Shown piece by piece: positions 9,001 to 38,163 of a stretch of 38,163 bases of DNA. How positions within the stretch are numbered: the first letter of the stretch is position 1; every line of letters starts with the position of its first letter. The notes beneath the pieces were generated by a model. It saw only the letters and a program-made list of their open reading frames with translations. It was not told where the DNA came from and made no database searches. The translations under genes and the position numbers were made by a program. The stretch is from Dimargaris cristalligena. Its lineage: Eukaryota. The DNA is taken from assembly GCA_003614675.1 (NCBI GenBank), contig ML002363.1, positions 1-38,163 on the forward strand, given 5' to 3'.

Positions 9001-9530
9001 AAGGCTGAGGAGGTTCGTTGTTAATGGAAATACTCAACTAATCCCTCCGAAAGCCCATCCGCTTGTTTTGTTTTGGGGGGATGTCCTTCCTACATGACTA
9101 GAAACAACTACTAAAAGGAGAGAGACAACTGGCCCTACCTACCCGGCTAGCACAGCATCATACCATTTCCCACCTCCCCCTTTAGGGGGAAAATGCCATT
9201 TAGAGTATATTTGGGAAACAGCGGCCCATGCAAAAGGAAAGGAGGAAGGGGGTGGAAAAACAATAGGTACAGCTGCGCCTTACGCCCAATTATAGCCAAC
9301 GCTAGTCCAACTGGTGACTTTTGGCATAACCGACACATGCCCAGTTTAATAATAGGGAGGTGATGCCTACCTTGGCCTACTTAGTACGTGTACGTGCAAA
9401 ATCCCAAATCCATTATCAATGATGATGTAACAACCCTCTTCGCTTTTTCGTTCATAGCCGGAACATCTACAATCTACGGGTGTAGTACATCACTTTGCAA
9501 CGGGGGAGGGACGAGGTGGTGTATTTTTTC

Positions 9531-9556
9531 ATATATATATATATATATATATATAT
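9531..9556. repeat. (AT)13 microsatellite
   Basis: Read directly from sequence. Confidence 0.95.
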
Positions 9557-11465
9557 TGTAAATGAAGGGGTGATTATAATATATATTAGGAAAGGGATAT
9601 GGAAAAAAAGCGGTGCAGTCCAATTCGGCTGAGGGATGCCTTAGACATGCCGATTTCCCTTTTTAAATAGGACACGATAGAAATGTAGGCGATCTGTGGT
9701 ACCCGCCATCACCGCTGCCCACCCCCTCCCGCTGGTGTAATGATGATGAGCGAAGCGGTCCTAAATGGTACCTCCCATCTCCCTCCATACTACCCCGCCC
9801 GTGTGGCTATTGTGTTCATGCAAATGGAGGGGCAGTTCAGCCCATGTTATTTAGGGATGCCATGCTATTTATTTACTTTGGACAGAAAACGACCAATGCA
9901 TATTTATTTGTATATAAACATACCGGAAAAGAGGGGCGGCTATGCAGTGGGGCAATCAAGGCTCGCCCGAACTTTGCCAGCCATGTAGAAATCCTGTACG
10001 TAAAGCAAAAGGGCCTGGGAGTATATCACGTAAGAGTAGTTTTCACTTTGGTTGATTTTTTTTCTACATCCTTCAAAATGTGCAGTTGATTCATGGGTTG
10101 GCCGGCCACAACTAGAGAAAGGGGTGGAATGGTGGTGGTTATTCCGCTGGGGCATTTTAAAATCTCCGAAAGGCGTGTTTTCATGGCGTCGCCTTTTAAT
10201 GAGAAGCTTAACCCTGGGCGCGTCCGAAGTATTGTCCCCATTTTCAGCTACGTGACTCCGAACCCAGGAATATGATCTTCATTCCTCGGCTACGCGCTAC
10301 ACTCAAGTCGGGAGGGGGTGATTCTACATGGAAAGCTCGTATGGAAAAACCTTATCTTTCGACAAAGAATTTAACTTGGGCGCTTTTCAGCGAAGTAGTG
10401 AGTGGGAAGGGGGGAGGAGGGAATGGCACAAAGACCATCATCATAGGATGGCTGCTAATCCATGTTTGGTAATAGGATTCCCCCGCCCTCAAGCAATGAT
10501 GATGGATCACTCTCTTTGACCCTCTCGACAGGGTGTGGTTGATTGCCCTGACCTAGTGGGTAGTGAACGGTGCCAGGAGTGTTGCTTGTTGGCTTATTAA
10601 TAGTCAGTATGAAGCATCAACCGCCCAACTCATCATTACGTAGAGTTGCCCTGGCGCGTACTCAATCGACCACGATATGTGGGGTAGTTTAGTTGTTGTT
10701 TTTTTGGTAATAGAGACGACGAAACCCCTGGCCGAAATGATGGCGCAGGATGCGCCAGAAAGGAGGCGTGTTCGGCTACTGTATCCCTTGTTCAGAATGG
10801 CATGCCATGAGTTGTTGGGTGGGTACCATCCCCGTCCATTTGACATACATCAATCCCCCCCCCCAAATCAAGCATGACATGCCCCCCTCTCCCTCCTTCC
10901 TCTTCTAAACCCTTCAGGGTTATCAAATGGCTTTCAAAGGAGATGATGTGGTCACTTGTTAACCAATAGCCAATAAAATATTACAGCGTCCGATCACCCA
11001 ACCAGTGATTTCAAGTGTCGCCCTTTCCCCATGTCATTTTGATGAATCCTTTCCTTATGACTAACTAACCCTACCATGCCAATAAACTTGGCCCAGCGAG
11101 TATACGAATACCTTCATTAACTCAATAGCTCAATAATAAAGGAAATCCTAGAGAGTGGAAGGGGGAAGGCAATGTAAAAAAAATCAGCAGGGGGGGGCAA
11201 ACTGAGGTGGGCCGCCCACAGAGAAGTGCCGTGAATGTCAAATCTGACGCAGTAGTTACCGCATTTGGACATTTGGAGTAACCTTCCCAGTAATGCCGGC
11301 TAGGACAAAGCCATACGAAACAAAATATAAGTACGGGAGAGGGAAATAGTGGAAGTAGACGGGGGGCAAATCCTCGCAAGTCTTTGGAATTGGCACCTAG
11401 TGCAGAGAAGGGAGGTGGTGGAGGCATGGCGGCCAAAGATACCCATCGTTGAGCTACGCCGCCGT

Positions 11466-11492
11466 TGCTGATGCTGATGCTGATGCTGATGC
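11466..11492. repeat. (TGCTGA)~4 microsatellite
   Basis: ttgctgatgctgatgctgatgctgatg. Confidence 0.85.
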
Positions 11493-12326
11493 CATTGTCA
11501 TTGCCGCCGCCTTCGCGGCAACATACGGGTTGGGTGGAAAATACCGTAAAGGCAAAAGGAGAGGGGGTTTATTCACAGATTCACGCACCTACGCCGATAA
11601 TATACATACACATCGATACACCCTTTTTGCAACAGTTCGGGGTGAACCTGAGACTCGGACCCCTTGGCTGGGTCAGGCAGGGGTCGCTTTATTTTCTGTG
11701 CCCTTTAAAATCTATATTTGGGTGGATGTTGACTCGCTGGAGGGAGGGGGGTGAATATTGCATGGGTCATTGGGACCGCCTACCACAAAATGATGCGCGG
11801 GTTGGTGTTTAGGTCCGCGGAAGGCCAGATGTAGCCGCATTTTTCCTTTTCTATTTATTTTTTACTCACGAAGGTAGCCCTTATGGTGGGGTTGTAGTCC
11901 AATAATATATATATACATCTGTATATAGCCAAAGAATCTGAGTAATGGTGAATCAAGAGTTAAAATAACCGAACCGTCTTGGCTGTTTAAAGGGGGTCTG
12001 TGGGGAGTGTGAAACGGCCAAGATAATTGGATTTCATAGGGTAAAAAATCCTGTCCCACTTGAGTTGTCTAGGCAAAGGCGGCTGCTGTATAGATAATTC
12101 AAGGTAAAAATGGGGTGTTTAATGTAGGCGGTAAAACGGACAGCCATGAAATGGGGTTGGGTCCCTCCCTCTCTCTCCTTCCAGCAAGGAAGCACAGATG
12201 CATCGCTTATTGGCCATGGCGGTCACGTACAACGGCTGTGCGGGTATGTGGGAGGGGTCGTCCATCAAGTGGGTAGGGTAATCAACCCACTATGAAATTG
12301 GGCAGTCTAGCTAGCTTTTACCCGTG

Positions 12327-12380
12327 GCCACTGCCACTGCCACTGCCACTGCCACTGCCATTGCCACTGCCATTGCCATT
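12327..12380. repeat. (GCCAYT)9 hexanucleotide microsatellite
   Basis: Nine consecutive gccact/gccatt units. Confidence 0.95.
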
Positions 12381-15300
12381 GACTTGGGGTATGTGGGACT
12401 GAGTTAAATGGGTCGAATTGCGGGAAGGGGAAATCGATCCCGGCGTTGAAGCGACCCGGAGGGTAAGCACTGTTTGGGCCATCTGTAGTTAAAGGAGGAG
12501 GCTCGACTTAGGATATAGATATACCCCTCCATACACTATAGAGTGAATACTACCCAATTACCCAATACCGAGTCGATGAGTTAGTGTGATTAAGCAGCGA
12601 ACTGTCCTTTTTATTTGGCCATCTTCACTGCTGCCACTCGAAAATGGCCCGACATGCCGTATCATTTTTATTTACACCTTTCCCTCACCAACCCCCCAGT
12701 CAATTTGGCATCTATTAAGTCATCTCTCTGGGAAAGACAGAGAGAGAGAGAGGTGCCTCCAACACATTCGCTACAGTTGTTACACCCGGCAGATACTGCT
12801 CCCAATGCCCATGATGCTACAACGTCGGATGCGGCACATCCACTGTCAAAGTTGGCCAATCCCCGGTGGTGGTAGCGACATGGGTGAATGGGAAATATAG
12901 TATAAAGAAAAATACCCCACCATTTCCCTCTCTTCCAAGGCTCTAAAACTAGGGGCAATGGTATTAAATTGATACATCTTGTGTAGGGCGTGCTCTCCCC
13001 AACTTTTGGCATTTCGGATCCGAAATTAATTACACTGGGGCCAATATACCAGTTGCCTTATAACAAGCCTATGTAGTATCAGCATTGGCGTCATCTCCAC
13101 TATTACCATGACAATGGGCAGTGGTGATGAGTAAGTGTGGGGAGGAGGGATAAAGCAGGGAGTTGGAGTTGCGGTTGTGGTTGTGGAGAGTCTAGGGTGG
13201 ACATCTGTTCGGTCCAGGGATGCCAACGAATCAAGTAGGTATGGGCCCAAATAAGGTGATGACCCGGGATAATTACCATATCCCGACATCGACCCCCCCT
13301 CCACATAATCCCTGCCCCCGCTTAATGGAACCCCGCCACGCGCGCCGCTGCCAATTTCATGAACCACGGCGGAATCCCTAAATCCGATTCAGCCCAGGAA
13401 ATGGTCGGCCACTTTTCCCAATCTATATTTTTGACGTTATAATGCAGGCAGACGGGCTGGGACATCCGCACTAACTCGCACATACATACAGCCATTCGCA
13501 TTGATGGGGTGTATATTACGTCCATTGGCAGCCCATCTAAATAAAAGGGTATACACTCTGCAGACCACTTTCTCTGGCCATGCAAATTTATAGCACCTCT
13601 AAAATTGGCCACCAATTGCTTCATTAGTCATTTATCCGCCTTCGGGGTTTGAGTGGATTTTGACAGGTCAGCGGATCCCTTGGGATATTGTTAAGGAAAA
13701 GCGGTATAGTGTGCGAAAGGGAAGAAATCGAATGAAAGACAAATAATATTAGAGAGAAAAAGAGAGAGAGTATGAGAGTCCGATGACGGATAGCCTCCAA
13801 ACAGCGTTCGTTGAAGGGAAACACAGAGCTCTCTCTGGCTTCAGCATTGGTTGATCTCGGCCAAAAGAAGACGACGCTTGGTGTTGTACGAAATAGGGGG
13901 CTCGCTATTTTAATCCGTCCAACAACGAGGGGGGGGGTGGTCACCCCACTTTCGCCCAAGGAGAGAGAGAGGAAAGGGCAATGATTAGCGGAGGATGTTG
14001 TGATGAAGCTCAATACTCATCATAATAGCCGGTTCGGTTCGCCAATGGGCATAGAGAACACAGGAGTTAATGTGATGATGACGAACAGACACTTATCCCG
14101 TCGTTCGATGGGTTGTTCACTCACTGGCTACGGCTAAAGGCGAGTGGCAGCAAATTAGTATGACTCCCCCCGTTGTGGTAGTATATGGCAGACGAGGAGA
14201 AGGAGGAAGAATACGCCCTTGAATCTATTATTTTTTTACTCGCTTGCTCTCTCTCTCTCTCTCTTTCCTGTCTCAATCGACCTCTCGATTAGGAAACGGC
14301 GATCATTCCCCGTCCAACAGTGGACCGGGAATGTGCGACTCAAACTGGTCCCAACATGTGTCCCACCCTTAACTGCAGTCGAGTCAATCGAATCAGCCGT
14401 TGTTGGGAAGGAGAGAGATGGAGAAAGCGAAGCCCCTCCCTCCTCCACACACGTGGGCCGGACCCGGGGGAGCCCCATTGTTAGGGAGTTTGCCTCGTTC
14501 CACCCAATCCACATCAAAAAATCACACACACACAGAGAAAGACCGAGACAGGCACACTCCACATTCTAGCCAGTCACTCGGTTGATGGCGTGTACCCAGG
14601 AGTTTCATTTACCATATACCATTTTTTATTCCATACGCTTCTCCACCCGACCTTGTAATCAATCGGATTTGGGGGGATCTTGCTATTTTTATCACCTCCG
14701 CGAATTAACATCTGAAAGGCATTTGAATATCTTGGCAAAGTTAATATAGCCGCCCCAGCTGTCTTACCAAACCCCCGGCCAAGTATCGCTGCCGTGCGCA
14801 GCTGGAAGGGCGAAGGCTAAAAATACGATTAGGATTATTCTTCAGCCCGACACACCGTTGGAGATGTGTGCGTGATTCACCTGCCTATTTGTCTCACCCA
14901 CGGTTAAAAGATCCGCTAAATCGGGCGAGTGGAACAATACCGGAAAAGAATGAATCTAGTAGTAGTATTGTCCATAGGGGTCATGCCGACCTAGACTCGG
15001 ATATATATCATGGAAGAAGTATAGAGAAGGGTGCGCTAAAGTTCACTGATCTCCGCCTTGTTCTATCCCACTCACCTGGATTAGGACAAAATAAATCCAT
15101 TACATATTTGTGTGGGCGGTAGACATGTGGGTGTAGGTGTGGACGTCAGTATATATATGTGTGTGGTGTAGGTGGGTGGGTATACGTGTCGCCCGTATTT
15201 CCCTTCCATTGCTGTGAATAATGTACTTTTCTGCAGCAATTCGAGCCGTCGTCCAAGAGAGGATGTTCCAATAGCAATGGTTGGAAATAAGGAGTGTGAA

Positions 15301-16531
15301 GCCGAGAGAAGATGGAATGGGTCGTTGGTCTTGGTTCAACTGATGCGGCGTCGGCTTCAAGCTACAGGGTCACTCTCTTTAAGGAGGTACAATTCGTAAA
15401 ATTTATCGGGAATGATTGGCCGTATAAGTTTTTGGGGGGCGGCCGGGACGAAGGGAGGGGTGTATGGATATGACAGGGGGGGTCGATGATGATGATGGTG
15501 GTGGTGGAGGAGAGATTATCCTAGAATTAGATGATGGGTTTGGGTTACCCTTTGGATGAATGGATTGTAGGCCAAGGGGGAAGGGATAAAAGGCGTTATG
15601 TGGAATGACGATGGCGGAAAATGTGTACCGCCTCCACATAGATTCAACCGGACAGTAGGAGTGGGAGGTATGATTTTAAGTAGGGGCTACAACTGGTAAA
15701 GGAATATAATCCCCAACCACTCCCACCCAATGTGTAGCCGCTGAAAGGGACAATACTGTCGCAAACCCTGAGGAGGACGAGGATCAGAATAGGGGCAGCG
15801 GGAGGAGGCTAAAGGGGGGAGCAAACCCGCAATGGGAGAGTATGAGGGAAAGACGGCTGCGTGTGTCACCCGCTCGTTCCGGCCCCGTCCTGGTGACTTG
15901 GAAACATTGGTTGGGAATGTCAGTGAGCCCTGGTCACATCCTCCCCCCCCCCAGCCAGCCAACTGACTAGTGGTGGAAAAGACGAACATCACTATAACTA
16001 ACAGATGTTCATAGTGGGACCTAAATCTACACCACCACCATATACAGACACATATACATATATAAAAGAGATATAGACACACCTACGCACGCCCAGTTTC
16101 CTACATTCACCGACTCCCCTCTTTTACCATGGCTTCGCATTTCCCGGACCCACTGGCATTGGTGGCGGTTCTTGGCTTAGATTATGGGGTTGACGGGATT
16201 GTCCGGCGCAACTAACAGCAGGGGGCGAAGGGGTGCGACGAAGCAGTGGAATATTCAACCACCGATACACACATATATATACACACCCATCTACAATGAC
16301 CACATCTCCCCTTCTTGTCGAATTGCCGAATATAGTACAAGGGATAAGTGCGAATGTGATTTCGTTTCATAATTACCCACCACAACTGGCAGGGACAATT
16401 AGGGAGAATTATGTAGGAAGGAGCCACGGTGGTTGGGACTGGACTTGAGCTACACAGTACGCCATTATTTCCACTTTGATTGTATTCCTCTCTCCGATTA
16501 GGCCAGTTCCTTCTCATGTTTCCTTTCTTTT

Positions 16532-16576
16532 TATTATTATTATTATTATTATTACTACAGTATATATATATATATA
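16532..16576. repeat. Compound (TTA)n + (TA)n microsatellite
   Basis: Read directly from sequence. Confidence 0.85.
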
Positions 16577-17012
16577 CTATTAGTAATTAGTGAGAAGAAA
16601 TGAAATATGGATATTGGCACTGCCGACGGGGGCGACGAGTAGGGAGGGGGCCCCCCAAAAAACAACAGAGAAAATGAAAGAGAGGGGAGATGGAGGGAAC
16701 TTCGACTACTGTGGGCCTCGTTTTCCGTCCCTTGGATTTATATTTTAAGTTCCCAAAGGGCCTATAGGGGGGGCACACTTCGTTCATGAGTAGGCCTTTG
16801 TCGCACACCCTACTATACCCTGCACACACTAGTTGGGTGCCTCTTTTTCGCCTTTCCGTAGTCTGAGTAAGGTTTACATTCGTCAACCCATTTTCCTAGT
16901 TCACACCACCAACCAATAGTATAAAGCTACTATTGGATAGAGAGAGGGACTGTGTGGTGTATTTGGGAGGGGGGAAGGTATGATCCACCACCTACACCAC
17001 CCGCACGCGCGG

Positions 17013-17013
<1 letters not shown>

Positions 17014-17047
<34 letters not shown>
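17014..17047. repeat. (TG)17 microsatellite followed by short (GGTT)n
   Basis: Read directly from sequence. Confidence 0.95.
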
Positions 17048-17050
<3 letters not shown>

Positions 17051-19325
17051 TGGTTGGTTGGTGGTGTGTGAGCGGCACGGTCGAGTAGTATTAGTTCCTT
17101 TCAGCAGATTGTTTATGGTGGATCCCAAAGAAACTACCTCCCACCGTGGCTAAATTACCACCAGGCGGCATTGGTGGTGGAAATAAGAAAGAGGCAGGAG
17201 GTACGGCCAAGGGGCACACACATACACAATATCACACACAAAACCCCTTCGAAACCAACTATTGAAGGAGAGAAGAGAGAGAGGCATTCATATAACCTGA
17301 CCAGGGAGAGGAACGAGAGGGATTCAGCCACCAGTAAAAGTATGGTATCTGTGTGCCAAAAGGGAGAGAGGGGGGGGGGTTGTGAGATGGATAATAATAA
17401 TAATAATGGCCGGTTTTAGTGGTGTGATTTTTTCGAAAGGCCAGAGGTAGGAGGATTCGATTCTATTATTTCTATAGAGAGGGAGTTGTTGGGTCGCCCC
17501 AACTCTTAATTGAGCCGAGCCTAGATAAATAAATAAATGGCGGGTTGATTGTATCCGCCGACCTGACCTAACTTCTAGTCTAGGAGTGCGTGTGTAGGTT
17601 TAAATGGGCGGGATGTGGGAGTTGTGCCCCCCGTGTAAAGAGTACAGCACAGCCGCCGCATTCGGTTAAACATCCCGCGTCATTTACACGGATGGGCACC
17701 CTTTCCGGCATAGTATAATAATACCCCTTGTCAGGCTGGCGTAGTGGTGTAGGGGGGGGGAATGACATTGGTATTTTCTAAATGGGCTGGGGGAAGGCGC
17801 GGAAGCATCCGGGAAGGATAAAAATCTACCATTTGGGCCACGCACTACCACCACCAGTCTTGACGTGACCTGTGTAATCTATCGCACTCCTTTGACTCTC
17901 CTGCCTCTTGTACATAGCCAGGGTGATGTGATACTATTTTACTCTCTCCTACCTTAATCCGTGCGGCGGGTCTTCTCAGGTCCCGCCCGGAGATTACAGA
18001 CAAGGACTATTATATATATTGAATGCAGCGGTGGGTGTAATAATAGAAGCCAAGCCAAGCCAGAGGCGCCTTGGCTGGATAGAAAGAATGGTGTACATTC
18101 ATCCATAGTGGGGTTCCTCTGCCTATGAGAAGAAGAAACCGAACCCATCAAATGGAATAGTGGAATGACGGCGGCGGTCGTATCAGTCAGCCAGTCAATA
18201 GGCCACCCAACTAGCCCATTCCACCATCCACACAGCGAACACGCCGAAGGGCCGAGAAATGGTGGCAATGATGCTAGTTAGTAATACTGCGCCTGGCAGC
18301 GGACCAATCGTATATTACAATGGCGGTTGGAGCTTTTTTGTGCCATGCTGTACGGTGAAGAATATAGAAATGGTAACCTAGAGAAGGGAGGCTTCACAGC
18401 CAATTAGTCGCCCGATAGGGAAAAGTGGGGGTGGAGTAGATGGGAAAAATAAATGTACCACACCGATACGGCCCTGTAGCTGGAAGCAAAGCAGGACACA
18501 CCAAGGAGGGGGGGTGTATGAAAAAAGAGGGTGGCCACGATAGATAGGAAGAACAACAACACTTATGTATGTACGAAGAGATGAACAACAAGCATGATGA
18601 AAAGCAGGACGCGCAATCCACCCTAATAGTAATAGTGGTGGTTAGTTAGTGGCTGGCTGGGGACGGGAAGAGTATCGTGGAGGATAATCACAGCCTGTAG
18701 CAGTGGCAAAAAGAACCACCAATCCTTGTGTGTCTATCCCCTTCCTTCATCACACACTCCCGCCCCCATTCGGTCCATCCTCTCTTCTCTCCGTAGCCGT
18801 CGGAAAACACAATCTATTAGCCAAGCCCAATAATCAAAGGGAAGCAATCCCGCTCTCCTATTGGAGCCGCCCCCCCAAAGAGATCCTTGTGATATGAGGA
18901 AAGTGGCCAGATGGAATATAATACTTCCCCATTCCGGCCACTGTCGGTCGGCGTATCTTATTGACACCCTCCTCCCTCTCTCTTAGCCCATCCACATCAT
19001 ACTCCCCCCCCCACTACTACCAGTCAACCAACCAACCACACACCCTGTTCTCACTCTCAAGAAGAAAAAAACACCCCACCACCCCTCCCTCCCTTCTTCA
19101 TATGCAATAACATATACGCATTATATATAACCGTCACATTTAGCCTCCCCTCTATATATCCCCTCGATTGTTTATGTGTGTGTGTAATATGTACGCGCCT
19201 TCTATCCCAATTTTTCTGTAGTCTTTCTAAACCAGCCGATTCTTCCCTATTATATCTCCGGCTCTTCTAGCGCTCCTTGGCCATTTTATATCCCATTCTG
19301 CATATATCCAAGCCCTTTCCCTCCC

Positions 19326-19458
19326 TACCCTTCCTGCGCATACATCCAACTACTAGTTAACTGACTATTCCTGCGCATACAGCCAACTGCTAGTTAACTG
19401 ACTATTCCTGCGCATACAGCCAACTGCTAGTTAACCTACCCTTCCTGCGCATATAGCC
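19326..19458. repeat. 37-bp tandem repeat, ~3.5 copies
   Basis: Unit TTCCTGCGCATACAGCCAACTGCTAGTTAACTGACTA starts at 19331, 19368, 19405 and (partial) 19442. Confidence 0.95.
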
Positions 19459-19837
19459 TGCTGTATCCTCCCACTTCCTTTAAAATAACCTCGTTTCCTG
19501 TTTCTCCTCTCTACTACTGTCGTCCTTTTTCCCTCATATTGCTTAACCTACATTCCCCCCCTCTCAGTATTTACCATAGTAGTAGTAGACCTCTCTTCTA
19601 TTGCCCACGTCGTCGTCTCTTTCTCTCACTTTATTCGTATCAACTTCATGGCTGGTCCTTGCCTTTAGTGACGGGTCTCTTTTTAGTTTGCCGTGTTCCC
19701 GCCCGTGTTCAGTCCTAGCCGTATCTCCTTCCCTACCACACGACCTCGTATCCTCCTCGAAAATCTGGTGTCCCCCAAAACTATATCTATCCCTCCCATA
19801 TTCTCCCTCCCTCCCTATATATACTCATAACTAAACC

Positions 19838-21505
19838 ATGGCCGTGGCTACCTACGCACCTGCCCTCGCCCACACTTTCGGGTTGGTTCCCCAGCCACCC
19901 GCCCCCTTTGGCGCCGCCAGCCGGCATTCCCCCCGGTCACTCCACCCAATCTATCCCTCGCTCTTCAACCCTACCCCCGTGCCCACCGTGGGCCACAAGT
20001 CCCTATACCCGTCGCCGGCTCCCCACTCGACCTTGGCCCTCCGCGACCTGCCTCCCTTCAAATCCATCGACCCCTTGACCCTCGAGCAGCACCTCACCCT
20101 GATGGCCGACCTGGCCGGCCGCGCCGCCCTATACTTGTGGTACGATACCTTCTACCCCAACATCCCCCTCGACAGCTTCCACAAGTTCGTCCACCAGGTG
20201 CTCAAATCGACATCATTATCCTCGTCGGTGGTCCTACTGGCCCTCAAATACATTCATCGCTTCAAGACCGGTTTAATCTACCGGGAGGTCAAGAAGGGCT
20301 CCGAGTTCCGCGTTTTCACCGTAGCCTTGATGCTCGCGAGCAAATTTCTCGAAGACAATACCTTCACCACCAAGACCTGGGCCGAAGTGTCCGGCCTTCC
20401 CTTTAAGGAGCTGCACCGCATCCAGGTCGAGTTCCTCAACACCCTTAACCACAATCTATATGTCTCGGGTGTCGAATACTTCGATTGGCTCCACAGCCTC
20501 AGCCGCCTGGTTCACCAGGAGAGCTCCCATTTTCAGTACCCACGCGCTTCCCGCCAGGTCCTGAGTGCCTTTGTGCAGGAGGGTCCGGCCGAGGTGAACG
20601 GCATCTCCTGTAGCCCCGTGGAGCGGAAACGTCCCAGTCCCGCTCTGCTCAGTCCCCTGGCTCACGGTTTCGCTACTCCCAACCCCTCCCCCTATCTGGG
20701 CCGACCCGCCTCTTCCCCCGTTGCTCCTCACCGCCGGTCGTCTTTGGCCTACACCGCTGACCTGCCCCAGCACCTGATGGCCTACCCCCATACTTCAAAG
20801 CGTCGCTGTGTCCTCTCCGCCACCACCGGTGCCCTGGCCGCAGTGCCTACCCCCAACTCCTCCTACCACTATGTGCCCGCCACCGTGGCCGCCCTCACTC
20901 CCAATGAACTGCCCGTAAGCCGCTCCAACTACTCCGGCGATGCCCTAGTCCCTGCGTCCACTTCCACGGCCTTCCACGGTTCTCTTCCGGACACATCTTC
21001 GTCCGTCTTCACAGCCACCGCCAATTCCTTCCAGAATATGAGCATTGACTACAACCCTGGTCACCCCCGCTCGAATTACTCTCGGTCAACCACCGCGCAA
21101 GCAAATGCCGTCCCTACTGCCGAGTCGTACACTAACGCCTACCACACCCCGGAGGCTTCCGTCTACGACTCCACCCACCACTCCAGCCAATATTCCCCCG
21201 CCGTCTCCCACCTGTCCTACCACCACCACCAGCAACAGCAACCTTCCTCGGCATTTGCCAAGACGGCCCCTGTAGCTCACCACCGGGATTCGCTAGCTGC
21301 CTACCCCCAGTTCCATCACGCCCAGCACCAGTACCAACAGGTCCCTTCCATGAATACAATGGTCCAAACCCTCAATCACCCCTATCCACCTGAGGTGCAC
21401 ACCGGTTATCCCTCAGTATACCCACTGGACCACTTCGGCTACACCACTGCCAACGCTACTCACCCCACTGTCTCTTTTGGGGCTGACCGGAGTTTCCGCT
21501 GGTAG
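19838..21505 (+). CDS. Pho80/Pcl/Clg1-like cyclin-box protein, 555 aa, intronless, long Pro/Ser/His-rich tail
   Basis: Cyclin-box text FHKFVHQVLKSTSLSSSVVLLALKYIHRF...SEFRVFTVALMLASKFLEDNTFTTKTWAEVSGLPFKELHRIQVEFLNTLNHNLYVS is typical of fungal Pho85-type cyclins. Start context accATGg; strong C-ending codon bias. Confidence 0.9.
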   Translation: MAVATYAPALAHTFGLVPQPPAPFGAASRHSPRSLHPIYPSLFNPTPVPTVGHKSLYPSPAPHSTLALRDLPPFKSIDPLTLEQHLTLMADLAGRAALYLWYDTFYPNIPLDSFHKFVHQVLKSTSLSSSVVLLALKYIHRFKTGLIYREVKKGSEFRVFTVALMLASKFLEDNTFTTKTWAEVSGLPFKELHRIQVEFLNTLNHNLYVSGVEYFDWLHSLSRLVHQESSHFQYPRASRQVLSAFVQEGPAEVNGISCSPVERKRPSPALLSPLAHGFATPNPSPYLGRPASSPVAPHRRSSLAYTADLPQHLMAYPHTSKRRCVLSATTGALAAVPTPNSSYHYVPATVAALTPNELPVSRSNYSGDALVPASTSTAFHGSLPDTSSSVFTATANSFQNMSIDYNPGHPRSNYSRSTTAQANAVPTAESYTNAYHTPEASVYDSTHHSSQYSPAVSHLSYHHHQQQQPSSAFAKTAPVAHHRDSLAAYPQFHHAQHQYQQVPSMNTMVQTLNHPYPPEVHTGYPSVYPLDHFGYTTANATHPTVSFGADRSFRW

Positions 21506-23396
21506 GGTTGTATTAAGTTTGAGACTCTGTCAACCTACTTTGGGGTTTCTATTCCAATGGGTTGACTACTGCTGCACAGTATCGTGGGTGGTGTAGGGTT
21601 CAATAACCCATAATCAATTAGGTGAATGGCCCATGTCACCAGGGGCCCTCTTCCCTCAAGCCCAATTGAATGGGGCCATACGAGCTTGCCTTAGCATTCC
21701 TTCTCAACCCCCACCAACACTCTCTAATTATACTCCCTCTCCCCTAACGGCCAGCGGTTTCCAAATGCAAAGGCGGTCAACGTCCATCGTCAAGATGCTC
21801 CGATTCGATCCTCCCTGGCTCTGTTTCTTGGCGACTGGCTCAGCTATCTCGTGGAATACAATCTCTTTTTTCCCCTGTTCAGATGGTTCCACTTCGTTAG
21901 CGCTGCACTACTTGTTTTCCGCCTCCCCTTGATTTCCGCGTGCCGCCTCCCCCTTTCTTCTTCACCTCGACCGACTGTGTCCATCCTTGACGGCCATTGT
22001 CTGTTTGAGGCGATGAACACCCCTCGCTTCCTATTGGGTGACGTATGGCCTGGTCTTTTGCTCCCTTTGGTTGCTCACTCTTTAATGACCGTCGTTAAAC
22101 TGTAGATCGGTAAATATCGGTCCATTGTAGGTCTTCTCGTCATGCACCTCTCAGTATCCCTCATTTGTCTTGGTAGTTGTATCTACACTTATTCTTTTTT
22201 ATTCATTCCACCACTCTGTGATCTTCCAGCTTGTGAACTTTTCGGTTTACACACTATTTATCCCTTTGGTGTATGTTTATACCCCTTCTCTTCTGTTCAC
22301 CTCCGCCGGCGCTATTCCGTCATCACAAGGGTCTCTCCTATTCTTGTTCGTCACCCCATCCATTCGTCCATACTTTGTGCCCCTAGATTCTCATGCCTCT
22401 TTCGTTGCTCTTGTATTCCTCCATCTACCCTTTTTCTATTCTGAAATTATATATTATAATATTCGTATACTATTTCACGCTAATTTCCGTATTCCTCTGC
22501 GTTATTTATCTCACCAGGCATTTTCATTTATCGTTTCTTCACCTCTTCCTGCTCTCGCGTCCAATTGTTGTATAGTCCTCCTCCCTCCCCCTCACTACAG
22601 CCACTTTACAAGGTCGCTCATATAATATTACGTCCCCTAACCCCTCCACCTCCCTCTCCCTCACTGTAATTTTAATACCACAATAAAAGAAATCCCAGCT
22701 CCATTTACTAAAGTAACTTATCTGTTACATTATTATCCATATCGATTGAGTTTTCAACGTATGGTAGGGATGGCCGACATGGTATTGATAATGTGTAGTA
22801 GTGAAATGGGCTAAACAGCTATCATGCCGAATTTTTGTCGGCCGAATATGGCCTGGCTTACTAGGCTATTCATGCCGACCACTTCTGCGGGTTAAATTTT
22901 CAAGGAATTGAGCGGTAACTATGAAACATTAGGTGTAACGGAATGAAAGGCTTGGCGGCAGAGGGGGGTATGCCTATATTTATCCAGCTGCCCTAGTTTT
23001 AATATCTTGTAGTTGAGATTGGGCCATCTTATCCACACCATTCTCTCCAATTTTACCTCGGCTCCCAAACCACGTGCACGGATGACGCAGTCAATTGCCC
23101 CCCAACCATGGGAAACCCAGTTCCAAAACTCCCCCCATCAACCCCCTCCCCCCACTCTATGTTAGAAACCAGACTCTTGGTCCAATACCCCTAATGAGGT
23201 CAGTGGGACTGCCTGTAGGGCATTCGAATGTTGAATTCAAGCCCTCCCCTCCCCTGTTAGCATTCGTTTCCAATATGCGAATTGAGTTTACTAGACATTC
23301 ACCCAGGTCCCCTTCACGAATAAATGCCACTTGCTTATCTGTTGCTTGAATTGTCCCAGTTGTTCTAGTAGAGTCATATTATAGAGGTATTCCACC

Positions 23397-24874
23397 ATGT
23401 CTTTCAATACATTGACCGCAAAGCTATCCTTAACCAAGTCCAGCTCACAACTTCAGGTTGGTCGTCTCGCTAGCCTAGCTTCCGTTTCTTGCCAATTACC
23501 GAAATGCAGCAAGCGATCTCGAAGAATTTATAGTGTCAATTCGGAGAAACTCAGCCATGTTTCCTCCCCTCGTTCACACCCTTGGGGCTCACCCATTCGT
23601 CCCCCCTTAAAGTGGCCGACTAAAATTTGGTCCGATGTTATCCCAAGTAGTTGCCGCCCGCAGTGTTATTTGACGACCCAGTCCTCCCCAACCTCGTCCA
23701 CACCGTCATCACCACCACCATCCCCGGCCAAGAAAATCTGCTGGAAGTGCGATGCTAAAGTCGAGCATGACGCTATCGTATGCGATAATTCCGACTGCCA
23801 AACCATCGTACCCATCACCCAGGACATCACCTACTTTGACGTTCTACTCGACTCGGAAACGTTCGACGTTGATTTTCCGACTTTGCGTCGCAATTTTTTA
23901 AAATTACAGCAGCAGGTACATCCGGACAACTTTTCTCAAAGCGATGCGGTAAGTTACGGGTATTTATTCTTATATATATATAAATGTGTGTATGTTGTTT
24001 AAATCCAAATTCTAAGTGGTTGAATCATGCCTAATAGGGCGTTGTCATTCATCCTAAAGTCATTTTAAAACATTACACTATATCTACTTATTTGTTTATC
24101 TAACCTATTAACTATACCGCCGCCCTTTTCATACCGCCTTGCAACTCTACATTACAGAAAGAAAAAAAGATTGCTGAAGTCCAATCCACATGGCTCAATA
24201 CCGCCTACCATACTCTCCGTAACCCCCTTCTTCGGGCCAAATACATGGTAAGTTCTATGGCCCAAGCCCTACTTATTCCAGCGGTGCTCTACCCATCGAC
24301 TATCGGGATAGCTTGTAATCACTTTTTAATGCGTTTCTATATATAAAATTGTATATTTTTTCGATCCACATCCACCTCGACTGTCCCAATCATGGGTCCA
24401 AATAGCTTGAATTGCGTGGCTATAAATTTGGCGAAGCAGGTACACCCCAAGATCCCGAATTTCTAGGCGAAGTTCTTCAATTTCACGAAGACCTCGACGA
24501 AGTAACCGATGAGCAGGGCCTCAGCGAACTCAAGGCTACTAATGATGGTAAGTTAGGGCTTGGAATGATTCGGGTGACAAACTAGTCCTCTTTCATGGGC
24601 GTTATTTTACAATTAATCGTAATTCCTATGCTGACAAAGTAACCACCTAGCTAACTAAGCCGATTATCTATTGATGTTTAACCAAATTTATATATTTACC
24701 ATCTTCGATTTCCCACTGGCGGGGTACCCCTTAGCCCGAATCAAAGGCGTAGTGACGGAACTATCCCAGGCCTTTGCCCAAAATAATCTGGAAATGGCTA
24801 AAAATCTGACCGATAGGCTTCAATTCTGGTATAGCGCCCAAGAGGCTGTGAATAACTGGCAGCCATCCGCTTAA
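23397..24874 (+). CDS. JAC1: Mitochondrial Fe-S cluster co-chaperone HSC20/HscB/Jac1. Exons 23397-23948, 24158-24247, 24406-24547, 24735-24874
   Basis: J-domain with HPD (YFDVL...FDVD...LRRNFLKLQQQVHPDNFSQ), then STWLNTAYHTLRNPLLRAKYM|LEL, DPEFLGEVLQFHEDLDE, and C-terminal helices. Three GTAAGT...YAG introns join in frame. Ser/Arg-rich presequence-like N-terminus; CWKC...CDNSDC motif. Confidence 0.92.
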
Positions 24875-25152: not shown

Positions 25153-27273
25153 TTAGTAGTTTGACTTGGGCAGGGCAGGTAGGCTTTTGGTTTGGTCTAC
25201 GGGCCTAGAAGTGTTAACCTTAGTTTTGTTAGCGGCTTTTCCCGAAGGAGGCGAGGTATTGCGTCTAGTATTAGCATTAGAAGTGGATGGCTCCGAGGGT
25301 TGACCAGGTTTCATTAGATGGAAGGCCGTCGAGTCCTCTTCCCCCTCCTTGTTTGTAATACACACAGACATGTCGAATTTCTCTACGCCGGCCTCTATGG
25401 GACCATTTTGGGGATCAGTTTCTCTGATTTTGTACCCGAAGGAGACGAAAAATCGGCGAAAGAAGGCTTCGCCCAGAATCACAATGTTGCCCTCTTCGTA
25501 GGCCTTATCGCCATTATGGGCCCCGATGGCGGAAATATACCGAGACCGCCGGGGATGGAGGGACGGAGGTGATGACGATGATGGTGTGCAAACAGTATCC
25601 CCGGTAAAGTCGGGGCCGGGAGGGATGTAGGTCGATGAGGGGCGGGCCTTGGCAAAGACTTTCTCTACTGAACTAGTCGCCGCCTGGGCGGTGGCTTTGA
25701 GGAAGGAGCGCTTGCGCTTAAGTTCGCAATTGGCGGAGGAGGTCCGGTCGGTATTATCCCTATAATTATCGGGGCCGGCCGAGTCCACTTCGCCATCGGC
25801 GTCGTTGCCAGGAGAGGGTGGGGTGGTCATGACGTAATGGTTGCGGTTCATTTCGAAGCTTTTGTCGTCCAGCTCAAAAACAATGCGGTGACCGAAATGG
25901 TCTTCGTTGTCGTCAAAGGCAAAGAGCGCCCGGTTCTTTGGGTTCTTTTCCTTTTCCTTAGGTTCGGCTTGCCCCTTTTTCTTCTGGTCTTTTTCAGTCT
26001 TATTTTTCGATGAGGTTGGGGCAAGCGGCTTGGCCCCCAGGGCGGCGTTGATTTTAGTCGCTTCCGGCTGACTAAAGTAAATAAACCGGGCGGCAATCTC
26101 AAAATGGACCGAGGCGTCTGTGATCTCGGCCGCCAAGTTGCCATTCACCAATACACGGAATGTTTTAATTTGGAGTAGGAAATGGCTGCGGCCGAGGGGG
26201 GGAAAGAAGCATTGGATTGCACGGTTTGTCAGCTCATTTAGAGGTTTCCGGGAAATCACCAGTTCACCGCGGTAGGGGTTATTATTCTGATAGCTTTCGG
26301 ATGGTCGGCGATGATGCGTGCTACCGTTACCGTCACCGTGGTTATTAGTCACCGTGGCCCTTTCGCGGTCGGCCACATTATAATGAATGAAGACTGACTT
26401 CTTTTTACGCAGGACCAAGTCGTCAATCAATTGACTGCGCTGCCCCCTATCCGAAATCCCCGCCAGGGCCGTACCGAACAGACCGTCCATATCGAAATAC
26501 TCCGTGAGTTTAGCGGGGAGGGCGTTGGTGATGACGCGGAACTGGGTCTTTAACGCCTGACCCCCATTGGGTAAGCCCGGGTACGCGATGCGACCGTTGA
26601 CCCAAAGGAAACGCAGTTCCTCGTTGTGAAAAAAATTGACGCTATTCCCATCGTTAATGAACAGGTTGGTGATGCCCGGGTGTTTCTGCGGGCTGTTCAG
26701 TTCGGGCGCCCGGTAGCGTCGGAGAGATTCGGGGATCTGGAGTTGGCCGTTCGCATCCAAGGTTTGGGCCGTTGGACGACGGTGGGCCTCCCAATGGGCC
26801 GGATTGATCCACACGTCAAACCCCCGGCTGACGAGGCGGAGGCGGCGCCATTTCATATCCTTTTCGCTATTATCCGGCACGTCATAGTCGGCCGCGGGGT
26901 CCCGTTTCCCCGTACCGTCGTCGGGTCCGGAACCCAAGTGGATGGACGAGGCAGCGGGCGAAAAGGCCTGATCCGCGGGTATGAGGCCCACCTCTAGTTT
27001 CACATAAAGGTCACTTTGTTCGTGCCAGACAAATGGAAAGGGCCCCTTCTCGCTTTTGCCGAGAAGCTTCGAGCCTAGCTTGCCTAGAATTGCCTTGGGG
27101 TTCACTAAGTACTGCAGGGTGGATTTGGACGGGGTCGGAGGTTTGGGTGGGGCAACGAGGCGGCGGTAAATGGGGATAACGATATTCAAGTCATCGTCTT
27201 CTTCATTACCCAGGCACGGCATGACGCCGAGGCAAATTAGTAGCAGGGCCACGCGCATAGTAGTTGGTTTCAT
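25153..27273 (-). CDS. Secreted, highly divergent pepsin-like (A1) aspartic peptidase homolog, probably catalytically inactive, 706 aa
   Basis: Signal peptide MKPTTMRVALLLICLGVMPCLG. Ordered A1-like motifs: LYVKLEVG, FDVWI, DMDGLFG, GELVI, FIYF...KINAALGA, IVFELDDKSFEMNRNHYV, ISAI, IVILGEAFFRRFFVSF. No DTG/DSG. Confidence 0.7.
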   Translation of the reverse strand: MKPTTMRVALLLICLGVMPCLGNEEDDDLNIVIPIYRRLVAPPKPPTPSKSTLQYLVNPKAILGKLGSKLLGKSEKGPFPFVWHEQSDLYVKLEVGLIPADQAFSPAASSIHLGSGPDDGTGKRDPAADYDVPDNSEKDMKWRRLRLVSRGFDVWINPAHWEAHRRPTAQTLDANGQLQIPESLRRYRAPELNSPQKHPGITNLFINDGNSVNFFHNEELRFLWVNGRIAYPGLPNGGQALKTQFRVITNALPAKLTEYFDMDGLFGTALAGISDRGQRSQLIDDLVLRKKKSVFIHYNVADRERATVTNNHGDGNGSTHHRRPSESYQNNNPYRGELVISRKPLNELTNRAIQCFFPPLGRSHFLLQIKTFRVLVNGNLAAEITDASVHFEIAARFIYFSQPEATKINAALGAKPLAPTSSKNKTEKDQKKKGQAEPKEKEKNPKNRALFAFDDNEDHFGHRIVFELDDKSFEMNRNHYVMTTPPSPGNDADGEVDSAGPDNYRDNTDRTSSANCELKRKRSFLKATAQAATSSVEKVFAKARPSSTYIPPGPDFTGDTVCTPSSSSPPSLHPRRSRYISAIGAHNGDKAYEEGNIVILGEAFFRRFFVSFGYKIRETDPQNGPIEAGVEKFDMSVCITNKEGEEDSTAFHLMKPGQPSEPSTSNANTRRNTSPPSGKAANKTKVNTSRPVDQTKSLPALPKSNY

Positions 27274-30200
27274 AAAATAGAGATGTAAGTGCTAACCAAG
27301 TGATGGCTTGGGGGTATTTTCAAATAGTTGATTAGTATGTCATCAAGCGGTTCAATATAAAAATATAAATATAAATTTAGATTTTAAAATTATTTAAAAG
27401 TTCTCCTGCAGAAATGCGCCTAATATCCACTTTCGTGCATTTTAATGGTGTGAAGCTATACTAAAAAAAAATAGACTAACTAGTATATACCGTCGAATGG
27501 TACGGGTGCCAATGGACGTGGAAAATGAAAGGCAAAAGGGATATCCCTCTGGTCGATGAGGATGTATCGAGGTCAGTGGGGGGGGGCTAAGATAATGAGT
27601 AACATAGGAGGGAAGGATGTCCAGCAGGCGGTTAGGTCGGTTATATGGGGAAGAGGGAAGGGAGCCCACAGGCGCCGGTGGTGGTCTGAATTCGCTGCTG
27701 TGCTACCTAAGATTAGGTGGGGTCAAGTGGAAAGAAACGGAAGAATAAATGGGGGTTTGGTCGCCCATTTTTCTAACCGAGCACCGCTTCCGTTTGTAGT
27801 TATTTTTCTATAGTCTCAGGTACTGCTAACCTGCCCTGTCTTTTATTTTTTGGCCCTTTGCTCCTGCAAAAAGACAGTTAGGGCCAAGGGTGGGGAGTAA
27901 AGGGAAGTCCATAATAATGGTACAAGAGCGGAGCGCGGAAACTATGGATAATCACCAACCACTCATTTTGTTACACTAAAGTAGTACAGCCTGTGGAACA
28001 GGAAGGTACGGGGGAGAAGAGGGGAGGTAAATAAAGTAAACATTGGCAGTGCGGCCTGGTGGAGTAACAGACATCGCCCCGTTTCGTAACTTCTACTGGC
28101 CATCCAATTGCTTAAATCCTCATTTAGAGAGGTTAGTTGAGTATGGACAAACCGCTGAGGGATATTTTTAGAGGGTTGGAACCTGTGTCAGAGTAGTGTC
28201 AGTACGGCGGTTAATTATCCCAGGTGGAAGGAAGAGCTAGTGCAATCGCACCCATCGAATAGTGTTAGACCCAAAGGCAAGCCACTATTAAGATCGCTCT
28301 ATTTAGGCCCGGGTTCCACCTTCACGAATCCTACGGGATTTCATTCGCATTTTGCCATGTTCACCTCCCGTTTTGGTCTCTTCGTTACCCTCCCCTGGAG
28401 CTGAAATACCGCCGTACATGTCAAAAGCGCGGTTGCCGAAATACCCTTTATAGCGGTGAACTATCCCTGGCGTTTTTCCGTCAACGCAGCGCTACTCGCT
28501 CCCTAACTCGTCTGCAGATTTAGTATGCGTTTATTGAATGGGCCACCCCAGGGAGGCTAGCCGTCGTGAGTGTTCGGAAGTAGTGTGTCGCGCCAAATAC
28601 GATGGCGGCAATTGGTCCCTTAGCCGTAGATTGGATAGTGAGGCCGGGAATATCCTATATCTGGAAGAACGGGCTAGGGTCGGCACTCAAGTATAGCCCA
28701 TTGGTTTCATCTTGACTTAATCTAATACCTAAACAGCACTGTACGCCCTTTACCCAGTGGTCCGGATTAGCATTTTCGCGGCACTACGACGGAGTTCACC
28801 AACTCAAGTAATAGCAAAAACTCGTGAAGCCTCGGAAGCACCGTGAATCACAATGTATAATTATCTTCAAGGGACCCATATACACCCCTATTCGCATCCA
28901 ATGTCACCGAGTGAGTAAGGTGGAATTAGTAGTGGATCCCCAACGTTCACCAGCGAAGGACTTGCCGTGTTAGTAGCCGTTCGGGTGTATTGGCAGGTGG
29001 ACATATGGTTTGTGAATTTGTATCTAACTGGATCATGCCACTGAACAACACCACACCGACCAGCGTATCTTACCCTCTCCCTCCTTTCTCAGGTATTGCG
29101 GACTGGCTAATTCCTGACTAAAGTGGAATCAACTCAAAGAAGCGACCCGAAGAATTCGGCCGCTATGTTGGTTGAAGAAAAAAGAAGGTATCCGAGTTTA
29201 GCTGGATCAGCTGGTTTGGGGGTGCCTGGGGTGTTTAGACAGTTGGCATGTACATGGGCTGGATATTGACGACCTCCATTAGATGCATGAATAATAGTAG
29301 ATGGTCGCGGCCTCTATTGCGGTCAGTGAGAGACTATTAATCATTAGGTCCTTTAGCACTATTCTCTCGGCAGTCGTGGGGATTTTAATATGCTCGTAGA
29401 AAGCCTCCGCAGTTACACTCCCCCTCCCCCTTTTTTATGCCTGCCTTCTCTCCTTTGGCTTAAAAATAGGCACTGCAGCTTCAAATCGAGATGCCTGTCA
29501 TCACTAGTGGGCTCCATGGAGTCAACGGGGCCAACTCTCCTCCCCCCTGTTGGTGTACTCCTGAGCGCCATACAACTAAATCCGCAGAAGGTGGTTTTGA
29601 GGGGGAAGAGGGAGCGGAATCGGCGGGGAGCAAGGTACAGATAATATAGGTAGGCTAGTTAATAAGACGCACGTGGTGGTGCCCACTAATGGGCAGTGGT
29701 TATGACGGGTTTCGTCATTGGCTATTCGTATTGGGCTCTAATAATGGTTCAAAATGAGGTATTCTCGGCTAGAGGGCCGACCTTTTTTTGATTTACGATA
29801 GCGGTGTATGGTAACCCAAGCGGTGGTCCCGGTAATCATCCCCAGCGGTAGCATATGTATCCCCGTATGTGAGGGCATTTCACCAAATCATTCAGGCATG
29901 AGGGGCACAGTGACTAGCCCGAGTAAACTGGGGTATTTAGGCTAGTGCATTGGCGGTGTAAATAATGTAATTTTTCGGGTGCCATTTGCCATTACAGCGA
30001 TCCCAAGCCACAGTACTGCCGATAAGTAAGAAGGTGTGTAGGACATGGAGTGGTGTGTGATGCTAAGATATGTAAATCCGGGGTCTGCGGATGCAGGTGG
30101 TACCCACTTGAAGAAGGCGATACAGCCCAGTAACCACATTCATCATAGACATTCGTGCTCAATGTCCGATGTCAATGAGTTCCGGGGAGGAGGGGGGAGA

Positions 30201-35816: not shown

Positions 35817-35909
35817 GCCGCATTTCGCTTTCCCGAAATACACCAAACCAACCAACATCTCTTGTAACATCTGAAACTACTCCTCGAGCTATTTTCCGAC
35901 CTACTTACA

Positions 35910-36173
35910 ATGCACTTCCGTCGTCGCACTACTACCGCCGTGGCTGCTGCCCTGGCCCCCACCACCGCGGCCCCCCATGCCACTCCTGACATTACCATTG
36001 TCACTGATACCGGAGTGAGTCCGCCCCTGGCTACCCTTCCCTTTTTCGTGCGCATCATGCTGGCCTGGAGGATTATAAAACGCATCGTGAAGACGGCTTT
36101 TAAGAGCCTAATCCATTTTCTTCTCGGAATTTGCAAGTCCAAACTTCAGTCCGCCCACCACGCTCAAGGATAA
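35910..36173 (+). CDS. Small 87-aa ORF/uORF in frame with, and immediately upstream of, the chitinase
   Basis: acaATG context; C-rich codons in the first half; ends GGA TAA ACT ATG (chitinase start). Confidence 0.3.
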   Translation: MHFRRRTTTAVAAALAPTTAAPHATPDITIVTDTGVSPPLATLPFFVRIMLAWRIIKRIVKTAFKSLIHFLLGICKSKLQSAHHAQG

Positions 36174-36814
36174 ACTATGCGATTTCTATCACTTCTTTTC
36201 GCTTCTTGTCTTATATTTGTACTCTACGTTCGGTCTGGCCTGGCCGACGGTTTTAGTTCCCAGTGTGGCCATAATCTTGTTGTGTATTGGGGGCAAAATC
36301 CTTGGGGAGGCCAGCATTTGGAAGATCCTGCCAATTGGGAACAAAATATTGACTACTATTGCCAGGATGAAACCGTGGACATCATTATCGCGAGCTTCCT
36401 CGTAAACTACAACCTGGGCAGGATCCCGGACACCAACTTCGCCAATCACTGCAACACCACCTTCCCTGGGACCCATTTGCACTACTGCGCCAGTATCGCC
36501 AATGGTATTCGCTACTGCCAACGCCGCGGTAAGAAGGTCCTGCTTTCCCTAGGAGGAGCCGAGGGCAGCTACGGGTTCCAGGACGACCAGAGCGCCATTC
36601 AATTCGCGCGTCTCCTTTGGGATATGTTCCTAGGCGGCAACCACCCCATGCGTCCCTTCGGTGAAGTAGTCCTAGATGGCATCGACCTCGACCTCGAACA
36701 CGGCGGCCCCACGGGTGTCACCGCCTTTTCCCGAGAGCTGCGGCGGCTGTACCAAAGCACCCGTTACCGGAAATACCTCCTCACTGCCGCCCCTCAATGC
36801 GAATTCCCCGACTC

Positions 36815-37025
36815 CAATTTGTGCCCCCCCGCCGTTACCCATACCCATACCTATATTATTGTTGGTGGGTGAGCCTTCGATTTGAGCCCCGCCGTTATTG
36901 CTCTGGCTGGTATTCTGGCGGGGTGGTGGACCTTCGATTTGAACCCCATCATTGTTGCCCTTGCCAATATTCTGGCGAGGTGGAGGGCCTTCAATTTGAA
37001 ACCCTTCGTCGTTACCCTTGCCGAG
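36815..37025 (-). repeat. 57-bp (19-aa) coding tandem repeat in the chitinase tail
   Basis: TTCRATTTGA recurs at 36876, 36933 and 36990. Peptide units resemble GKGNNDGVQIEGPPPRQNI. Confidence 0.85.
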
Positions 37026-37344
37026 GGTGGGATTACTCCCTCCAAAACACCTGCGCTGGTTATGCAGCCACTGGCCGGTGGCCTGGGCGAAATTCATTCC
37101 GCCGGGATTACGGCTGCGCTGGACCCGTCCGTCGTCAATATATTCGAGGTTGTAGTTGTTCCAGGCGTTACTCGCATCCCAGAGCATAATGCCGCCCAGC
37201 CCTTCGTAAGTGGAGCTGACGTTCTTGTAGATTTGGGTGAGGCGGGACAGGTTGACGTACCCGCGGCCGGCGCCGGGGGAAGCCGGTGCACCGAGGTACA
37301 GCTTCGTGTTGGGGTTGGGCATACGGCGGCGGGGGCACAAATTG
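36815..37344 (-). other. Inverted 530-bp chitinase segment bounded by a 14-bp inverted repeat
   Basis: CAATTTGTGCCCCC (36815-36828) and GGGGGCACAAATTG (37331-37344) are exact reverse complements. Confidence 0.9.
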
Positions 37345-38163
37345 ATGGCCCGCCCACCAATAATAATATCGACGATATGGCCAACAGTGAAGGTGACGCC
37401 GATAGTGACGTTGACGAGTTCGGGCAACAAGTAAACGTTTTGGACTCCGAGTCCGAAGGCGAGTTCGAAGGTGCCGACATAGATGGTGACGAAAGTGACA
37501 ATAACTTTGCCGACATCTCCGAATTCGAAGGTTAAGCCGAGTCCTAGTCTATCACAGGGGTCCCGATCAACCTGGCATTCATTTCAAACCGGTTCCCCGC
37601 ACTTCAGGAGTTCAAATTAGGTCATTCCGAGACGTAATCCCTTAAATTCCGATGCGTTCTGTGGTTCCATTTGTCGCAGCCTTAAGTTTAACTTCCTCAG
37701 ATTGCTCCTGATTAATATCTGACATTATATTGCTGGAATTTAGACCTCGGTTGCATTCACTTAAATTTTGAGCACCCTGTGGCCGTTGAGAAATAGATCC
37801 GGGTTCTTGGTTGGCCATCTGAACTCGATCCACTGCAGGACTTTGCTTATATTTTGTATAATTTGCTCCAATAAATTGTATGGGCTTCATTTCTGGGACA
37901 TGTCTGTTAATAGTCACTTAATGAGTTATTATATAGATGGCTGCATTGGGGAATACACGACTATATAGTTGAACATATAATCCAATGCTTTAGAAGGGTA
38001 CACCTAGGGCTATGATATTTTAGCGGAATTTTGATAATTTGTTTATAAGGCAATTGGTAGATAGTATGTGCCCGTGCCAGTCTCTGTTGGTGTGAAGGCT
38101 CACCGACCTATATTAACAGTACGCGTTTATATCGCCATATTTCCTGGCTAGTTGTGTCTGGGG

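Follow-up and report, generated by a model that had tools for sequence, protein, structure and literature searches.

An inverted middle, a deletion and a 14-nt inverted duplication in the assembled copy of a GH18 chitinase gene of Dimargaris cristalligena, with the native form in other sequencing runs

The split chitinase gene and its inverted repeat

The stretch of DNA analysed here (the window) has a length of 38163 nt and is the whole public contig. A chitinase gene near its end is divided over the two strands. The + frame begins with an ATG at 36177, and the N-terminal chitinase part (36177..36814, + strand) consists of a hydrophobic, signal-peptide-like N-terminus followed by the first half of the GH18 barrel. 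After ...AAPQCEFPDSNL the frame continues with unrelated residues as far as a stop at 36870-72. DxxDxDxE is the catalytic motif of GH18 (class III) chitinases; the N-terminal part contains LDGIDLDLE, which is of this type, and for LDGIDLDLEHGG in the + ORF the same motif is aligned in all six orthologs. The family profile PF00704 places the gene among the GH18 (class III) chitinases on its N-terminal part only (E 3.2e-13; score 50.5 bits, cut-off 29.6), the match of the + ORF spanning residues 34-212 and only profile positions 2-159 of 317. The C-terminal part gave no Pfam match at E <= 0.01.

The N-terminal part ends at junction J1 and the left arm of an inverted repeat, CAATTTGTGCCCCC (36815..36828), which is the exact reverse complement of the right arm, GGGGGCACAAATTG (37331..37344). 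The C-terminal GH18 part and the tail repeats lie between the arms on the minus strand (36829..37330), as identified by BLASTP, tblastn and the contigs of other sequencing runs. The minus strand reads ...RRRMPNPNTKLYLGAPAS...GGIMLWDASNAW...NFAQATGQWLH and then the tail repeats. These are 57-nt tandem repeats (36874..37022, - strand; tandem repeat listing and translation); an array row has 2.0-2.3 copies, and each repeat encodes a 19-residue unit of the type G-x-Q-I-E-G-P-P-P-R-Q-N. One further unit, GAQI(D)G, is coded by the right arm, which forms the end of the last GAQI unit and is native sequence in the contigs of runs X1 and X3 described below. Junction J2 is found at 37330/37331, where no more than about 1 nt is shared. 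From 37344 the + strand takes up the gene again with DGPPTNNNI, the start of a C-terminal acidic tail, DGPPTNNNIDD...SEFEG (37344..37535, + strand, stop at 37533-35); in the X1 and X3 contigs this tail and the 5' part are colinear. A 12-nt repeat is present at the end of the acidic tail (37448-37471, + strand), and no carbohydrate-binding module was found in the chitinase tail. The initial annotation of this DNA had described the early stop of a GH18 + frame, the rest of the barrel and the tail repeats on the minus strand and the resumption of the + strand, all of which agree with the present analysis.

The exact inverted repeats that it had placed at the ends of the segment were likewise confirmed. 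The arms (36815-36828 and 37331-37344) are 14 nt each and 100% complementary, with a spacing of 502 nt, and past one gap they extend by 7 matching bases (CCGCCGT) to 21/22. Inverted pairs of 14 nt were found in none of 300 shuffles of the gene region; the repeat around the chitinase middle is not due to chance. Flipping 36815-37344 by script gave a 1359-nt frame (36177-37535) with the terminal stop only, encoding 452 aa. The window contains 200 perfect inverted pairs of at least 10 nt that are 100-3000 nt apart, of which 131 were dropped as low-complexity and 69 were kept. The chitinase pair is the only one of the 69 in which an open frame is lengthened by the flip, from 909 to 1359 nt. All 25 inverted repeats in a separate repeat listing are low-complexity runs (TA, GA, CA, ATT).

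Orthologs and the native form of the gene

The proteins closest to the N-terminal part are the 'Chitinase 2' proteins of the Dimargaritales, with identities of 72% for Tieghemiomyces parasiticus, 67% for Dispira simplex, 65% for Dimargaris xerosporica and 64% for Dimargaris verticillata, which places the contig in a fungus of this order or close to it. The orthologs used include P0002 and P0004 (Tieghemiomyces parasiticus), P0085 (Dispira simplex) and P0001 and P0003 (Dimargaris). The N-terminal part is 71% identical to residues 44-233 of P0002 and the inverted middle is 60% identical to residues 273-365 of the same protein (BLASTP, E 7e-39). Identity with the 'Chitinase 2' group is 64-72% over the N-terminal part and 55-60% over the C-terminal part of the domain, DxxDxDxE is common to both, and the domain has equal length once 38 codons are added. 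In contrast to these proteins, the gene has 19-residue G-x-Q-I-E-G-P-P-P-R-Q-N repeats and an acidic end of its own, and the copy in the window is broken. The Ser/Thr/Pro-rich tails of the orthologs gave no alignment with the tail of this chitinase.

The flip does not restore the whole chitinase gene. The alignment of the flipped ORF with six orthologs has a 38-column gap at the first junction, filled by 38 residues in four of the orthologs and by 36 in two, and the gap includes the conserved DMVxVQFYNNxCG stretch (VQFYNN strand region). In tblastn the plus-strand match ended at 36821-36830 and the minus-strand match started at 37316-37328 for five of five orthologs. About 38-44 ortholog residues were unmatched, namely 234-272 of P0002, 221-258 of P0001, 224-261 of P0003, 222-263 of P0006 and 224-267 of P0007. 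A tblastn search for the missing stretch elsewhere in the window did not find it (best E 2.1). The (beta/alpha)8 barrel is thus not complete in one frame, the domain being split over two strands in the window, and 36-38 barrel residues are absent even after the flip in comparison with all six orthologs. Re-inversion, which according to the initial annotation restores one ORF, does give a continuous frame, but the whole gene is not rebuilt and 38 codons are missing. A Cys codon (TGC, 36822-24) within the left arm corresponds to Gly in all six orthologs of alignment A1 and in P0085.

The stretch is present in five sequencing runs of the same organism, from four samples and two studies, and one run per sample was compared. 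The comparison used assembled contigs, in which rare variants are lost and from which proportions cannot be read. Two of the runs are deep, X1 (sample S1, depth 61.6, contig of 22.6 kb) and X3 (sample S2 of the other study, depth 193.5, contig of 24.8 kb). In the contigs of both, 35900-36830 and 37331/37345-37900 share a strand and 36815/36829-37331 is on the opposite one, so that the chitinase middle is in the gene's own orientation. The piece that is on the minus strand ends at 37331, and the right arm is contiguous with 37345 onward as well as with the reverse complement of 36829 onward. Between 36830 and 37331 there are 111 contig letters that match nothing in the window. Altogether the contigs span 2114 letters against 2000 in the window and are thus 114 nt (38 codons) longer, in frame. 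This excess is exactly the 38-codon gap found against the orthologs, and the native chitinase should therefore encode about 490 aa. Judged by their length and frame, the 111 letters would code the missing barrel residues. NL and RM are 42 residues apart both in P0002 and in the native gene as reconstructed in this way.

According to this reconstruction the organism has an undamaged gene without introns for a secreted GH18 class III chitinase of about 490 aa, in which the N-terminal part is followed by the 38 further codons, the middle in + orientation and the tail. The intact, non-inverted gene that the initial annotation had named as the sign of an artefact is accordingly present at the level of contigs. 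The fixed inversion allele that it had also proposed is not supported, since the same contigs, which represent two samples and two studies, carry the native orientation.

Sequence differences between the runs are few. The inverted middle has no other letters in the X1 and X3 contigs than in the window. Over 35900-36830 two letters differ from the window; they are common to both contigs, are situated near the end of the matching piece and would fall inside the left arm. X3 has two single-base differences from the window (36153 G>A and 37799 C>A) and may be a slightly different strain. X1, X4 and X5 have no listed base difference over 2 kb, the two piece-end letters of X1 being unlisted, and therefore represent one strain or very close strains.

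Probable template switching and the origin of the rearranged form

The window form is an inversion combined with a deletion and a 14-nt inverted duplication, which is the signature of polymerase template switching. If the native left site is called a, the lost stretch X, the middle M and GGGGGCACAAATTG R, the native order is 5' part, a, X, M, R, tail, and the order in the window is 5' part, reverse complement of (M + R), R, tail. Of the two arms, the right one is native; at the left site the native contigs differ from the window by the two letters near the piece end. Since every ortholog has Gly at the position of the window's Cys, the left arm is most readily taken as the reverse complement of the right arm, copied in the course of the event, a reading that the two letters also fit. 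The perfect inverted repeat would then be a by-product or scar left behind, and neither a recombination site nor the cause of the rearrangement.

Junction J1 lies within complementarity between a and R, of which 7 nt are exact; the imperfect complementarity would amount to about 14 of 16. At J2 about 1 nt is shared, beside a further 7-nt imperfect inverted homology, ACGGCGG / CCGCCGT. A self-priming origin of J2 at this homology was considered and rejected. It predicts 4 or 7 G and the window has C then 5 G, so J2 is not inside the homology.

The rearrangement can be described as two switches. A strand copying the 5' part would have reached ...TCCAATTTG and then jumped to the opposite strand (J1), to the chance near-complement GGGGGCACAAATTG 0.6 kb downstream. 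The middle would then have been copied backwards as far as ...CATACGGCGGCG, and a second switch would have led back to the start of GGGGGCACAAATTG (J2), from where copying resumed. Such copying would invert the middle, remove a net 114 nt and leave the 14-mer in two copies that are inverted relative to each other.

The junctions of the window were found only in two shallow and uneven runs, X4 and X5, and in each without the other. Both runs are from the same study as one of the deep native runs. They comprise 148-218 thousand records for 25-29 Mb and are fragmentary, with contig depths of 2-33 within 2 kb and some stretches without cover. Contig 3 of X4 carries J1 (35900-36844, 0 other letters) and contig 5 has the native join of the end of the middle, the arm and the tail; J2 is in none of the X4 contigs. 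At the 30-mer 36815-36844 three X4 contigs converge: the first arrives from the 5' part (J1), the second from the reverse complement of the tail (native join), and the third leads into the middle. In X5, contig 9 (562 nt) is bounded by the reverse complement of 37345-60 at its start and by 37345-60 at its end; one of its ends holds the native join and the other J2. No X5 contig has J1, and 36637-36770 is without cover (two table bins). The loose ends of the X4 and X5 contigs were checked against the window sequence. In X4 the sole continuation of the 5' part is into J1, and in X5 that of the start of the middle is into J2. The native joins a-X and X-M were seen in neither run.

The switches would most likely have occurred in vitro, with J1 and J2 arising separately and being threaded by the assembler into one contig. 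Such chimeric junctions in the assembly are the explanation favoured here, with moderate confidence. If it is correct, the gene is not inverted in the organism and nothing switches. The window thus shows an ordinary chitinase gene in a damaged, derived form, and this form is most likely absent from the organism itself. An in-vitro origin is supported by the native form of the deep runs from two studies and by the separate occurrence of J1 and J2 in the shallow runs. The uneven, shallow depth of X4 and X5 is a hint that these libraries may have been amplified.

The chimeras of multiple displacement amplification offer a close comparison. In the data reported by Lasken and Stockwell (2007, PMC1855051), 406 of 475 strand-displacement chimeras were inverted joins, inverted with an intervening deletion, and 337 of the 406 joined segments less than 10 kb apart. 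According to the same report about 77% were primed at complementary stretches of 2-21 nt, and a junction occurred about once in every 10-22 kb of product (PMC1855051). Features given there for amplification chimeras (PMC1855051) are seen in the window, namely an inverted nearby join (0.5-0.6 kb), an intervening deletion and short complementarity at the join, here the complementary stretch at J1; the native sequence is moreover found in other data. The window differs from the chimeras described in that report (PMC1855051), which are single junctions in reads, by having two complementary junctions in one contig, and J2 shares only about 1 nt.

The small amount of shared sequence at J2, in spite of the adjoining 7-nt homology, also counts against an artefact in general. 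An artefact would further require that in each of two separate samples a chimera had locally taken the place of the native join, and one allele with J1 and J2 needs fewer events than two complementary independent artefacts.

It is possible, if less probable, that the window represents a real, non-fixed rearranged allele, a pseudogene present in some cells, nuclei or isolates. A template switch during replication, or two-break repair, would have inverted the middle, removed 38 codons and duplicated the 14-mer, and one of several chitinase paralogues would be inactivated. Both junctions would be explained by one event. J1 in X4 and J2 in X5 are each the sole continuation seen there, in two samples, and both are in the assembled contig; the agreement of X1, X4 and X5 over 2 kb is also in favour of this reading. 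The native joins in the shallow runs would then come from mixed nuclei, or from chimeras at the now perfect 14-nt repeat. However, a real allele holds J1 and J2 in cis, 516 nt apart, and X4 has J1 only and X5 has J2 only. The native form is also the consensus in the two deep runs, one of which belongs to the study of X4 and X5. One dropout and one chimera per shallow run are needed for a real allele, and the same number is needed for an artefact. That some nuclei or cells of one strain of this mycoparasitic, Dimargaritales-like fungus carry a real 0.5-kb template-switch product beside an intact gene is rather unlikely.

Most short-range switches published from living cells involve far less than 500 nt, and an inversion of about 500 nt is long for the class. 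Short-range template switching between imperfect inverted repeats is described as a known mutation process (PMC5453318), the yeast lineage included (PMC8604942). As in the events described in these reports, copying here would have gone out at imperfect inverted repeats and back, leaving identical arms and an inverted interior (PMC5453318; PMC8604942). Unlike in the class as described there, the return point is downstream, so that 114 nt are lost, and the form is not fixed, native copies being present in runs of two studies. A real form would be a modest case of complex template-switch mutation without a new mechanism. It would show long-range template switching in a fungal coding gene, caught in the act, with a secreted chitinase knocked out.

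A pure assembler error, in which the graph was walked the wrong way through the inverted repeat and the junctions are in no read, is highly improbable. Assembly graphs do allow a stretch flanked by inverted repeat arms to be walked in either direction, which would permit such an error. The 14-nt arms, however, fall below the word sizes that assemblers usually employ, the loss of 114 nt would not result from a wrong traversal, and J1 and J2 are found in the independently built X4 and X5 contigs.

The initial annotation had further suggested an invertible switch, and Hin, Fim and the shufflon are bacterial invertible DNA segments bracketed by short inverted repeats. They resemble the window in having similar short inverted repeats in or beside a gene for a surface or secreted protein. 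A switch would also agree with the exact 14-nt arms and the in-frame position of both junctions after the flip, with both orientations of the middle relative to the tail in X5, and with the joining of the end of the middle to both flanks in X4. Unlike in the bacterial systems, the host is eukaryotic, no recombinase gene was found nearby in the ORFs scanned, the repeat would be absent or imperfect in the native chitinase gene, and the two states are not interconvertible without loss, as native and window forms differ by 114 nt. A scan of 36 of the window's 69 stop-to-stop ORFs of at least 100 aa, and of the three locus ORFs, found no recombinase, integrase or transposase domain, in accordance with the initial annotation, which had seen no recombinase gene. 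Had the native sites been the ends of the inversion, the missing 111-114 nt would be found in inverted form beside the right arm, but J2 lacks them. A programmed, reversible switch that turns a secreted chitinase on and off between 14-bp repeats is scarcely credible, considering that the flipped protein is without 38 barrel residues, that the left arm is probably a copy and that the native left site appears imperfect (a Gly codon in the orthologs where there is Cys here). Of the three readings put forward in the initial annotation, switch, fixed allele and chimera, the last is the best supported, with some probability left to the real, non-fixed allele discussed above.

Where a flipped coding segment is framed by a short, perfect inverted repeat, the repeat can be a template-switching scar rather than a recombination site. 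Comparing the length of the flipped ORF with orthologs exposes such a false inversion signal.

The public record and the remainder of the window

The public gene model at the locus, P0084, has 183 aa and covers 36264-36821 (+ strand), from NLVVYWGQ to PDSNL. It has neither a start codon nor a signal peptide, and its end, ...PDSNL, coincides exactly with junction J1. The public contig and this model understate an intact chitinase of about 490 aa. The chitinases of the organism bear on its attack of other fungi and on counts of carbohydrate-active enzymes.

In a search for near-identical proteins only the window's own 183-aa model was found, and a search for longer proteins that could represent the native chitinase gave none above 72% identity. 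An exact protein look-up found none of four locus ORFs, and a metagenome scan with a 35-nt stretch beside J1 gave 0 matches. Only 0.8 kb beyond the rearranged gene the public assembly is interrupted, at a point where the simple contigs of other runs go on, those of X1 and X3 for about 6.4-6.7 kb past the window end (38163).

The other ORFs of the window are ordinary eukaryotic genes, with Pfam matches to YjeF_N plus FDF, cyclin and Coa1. The region of about 9500-17400 is dense in TA, GA/CT, CA/TG and ATT microsatellites with many low-complexity inverted pairs, and the ORFs within it have no Pfam match. A 712-aa open frame (25156-27291, - strand) belongs to no Pfam family. It contains a 10-nt inverted pair (26781-26992), and the 2136-nt frame is open in both orientations of the segment; this pair is probably due to chance. 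The region 18001-24000 has a strongly negative GC skew (-0.23 to -0.32) and a GC content of up to 0.58, and spans the ORF with the cyclin domain (19835-21502).
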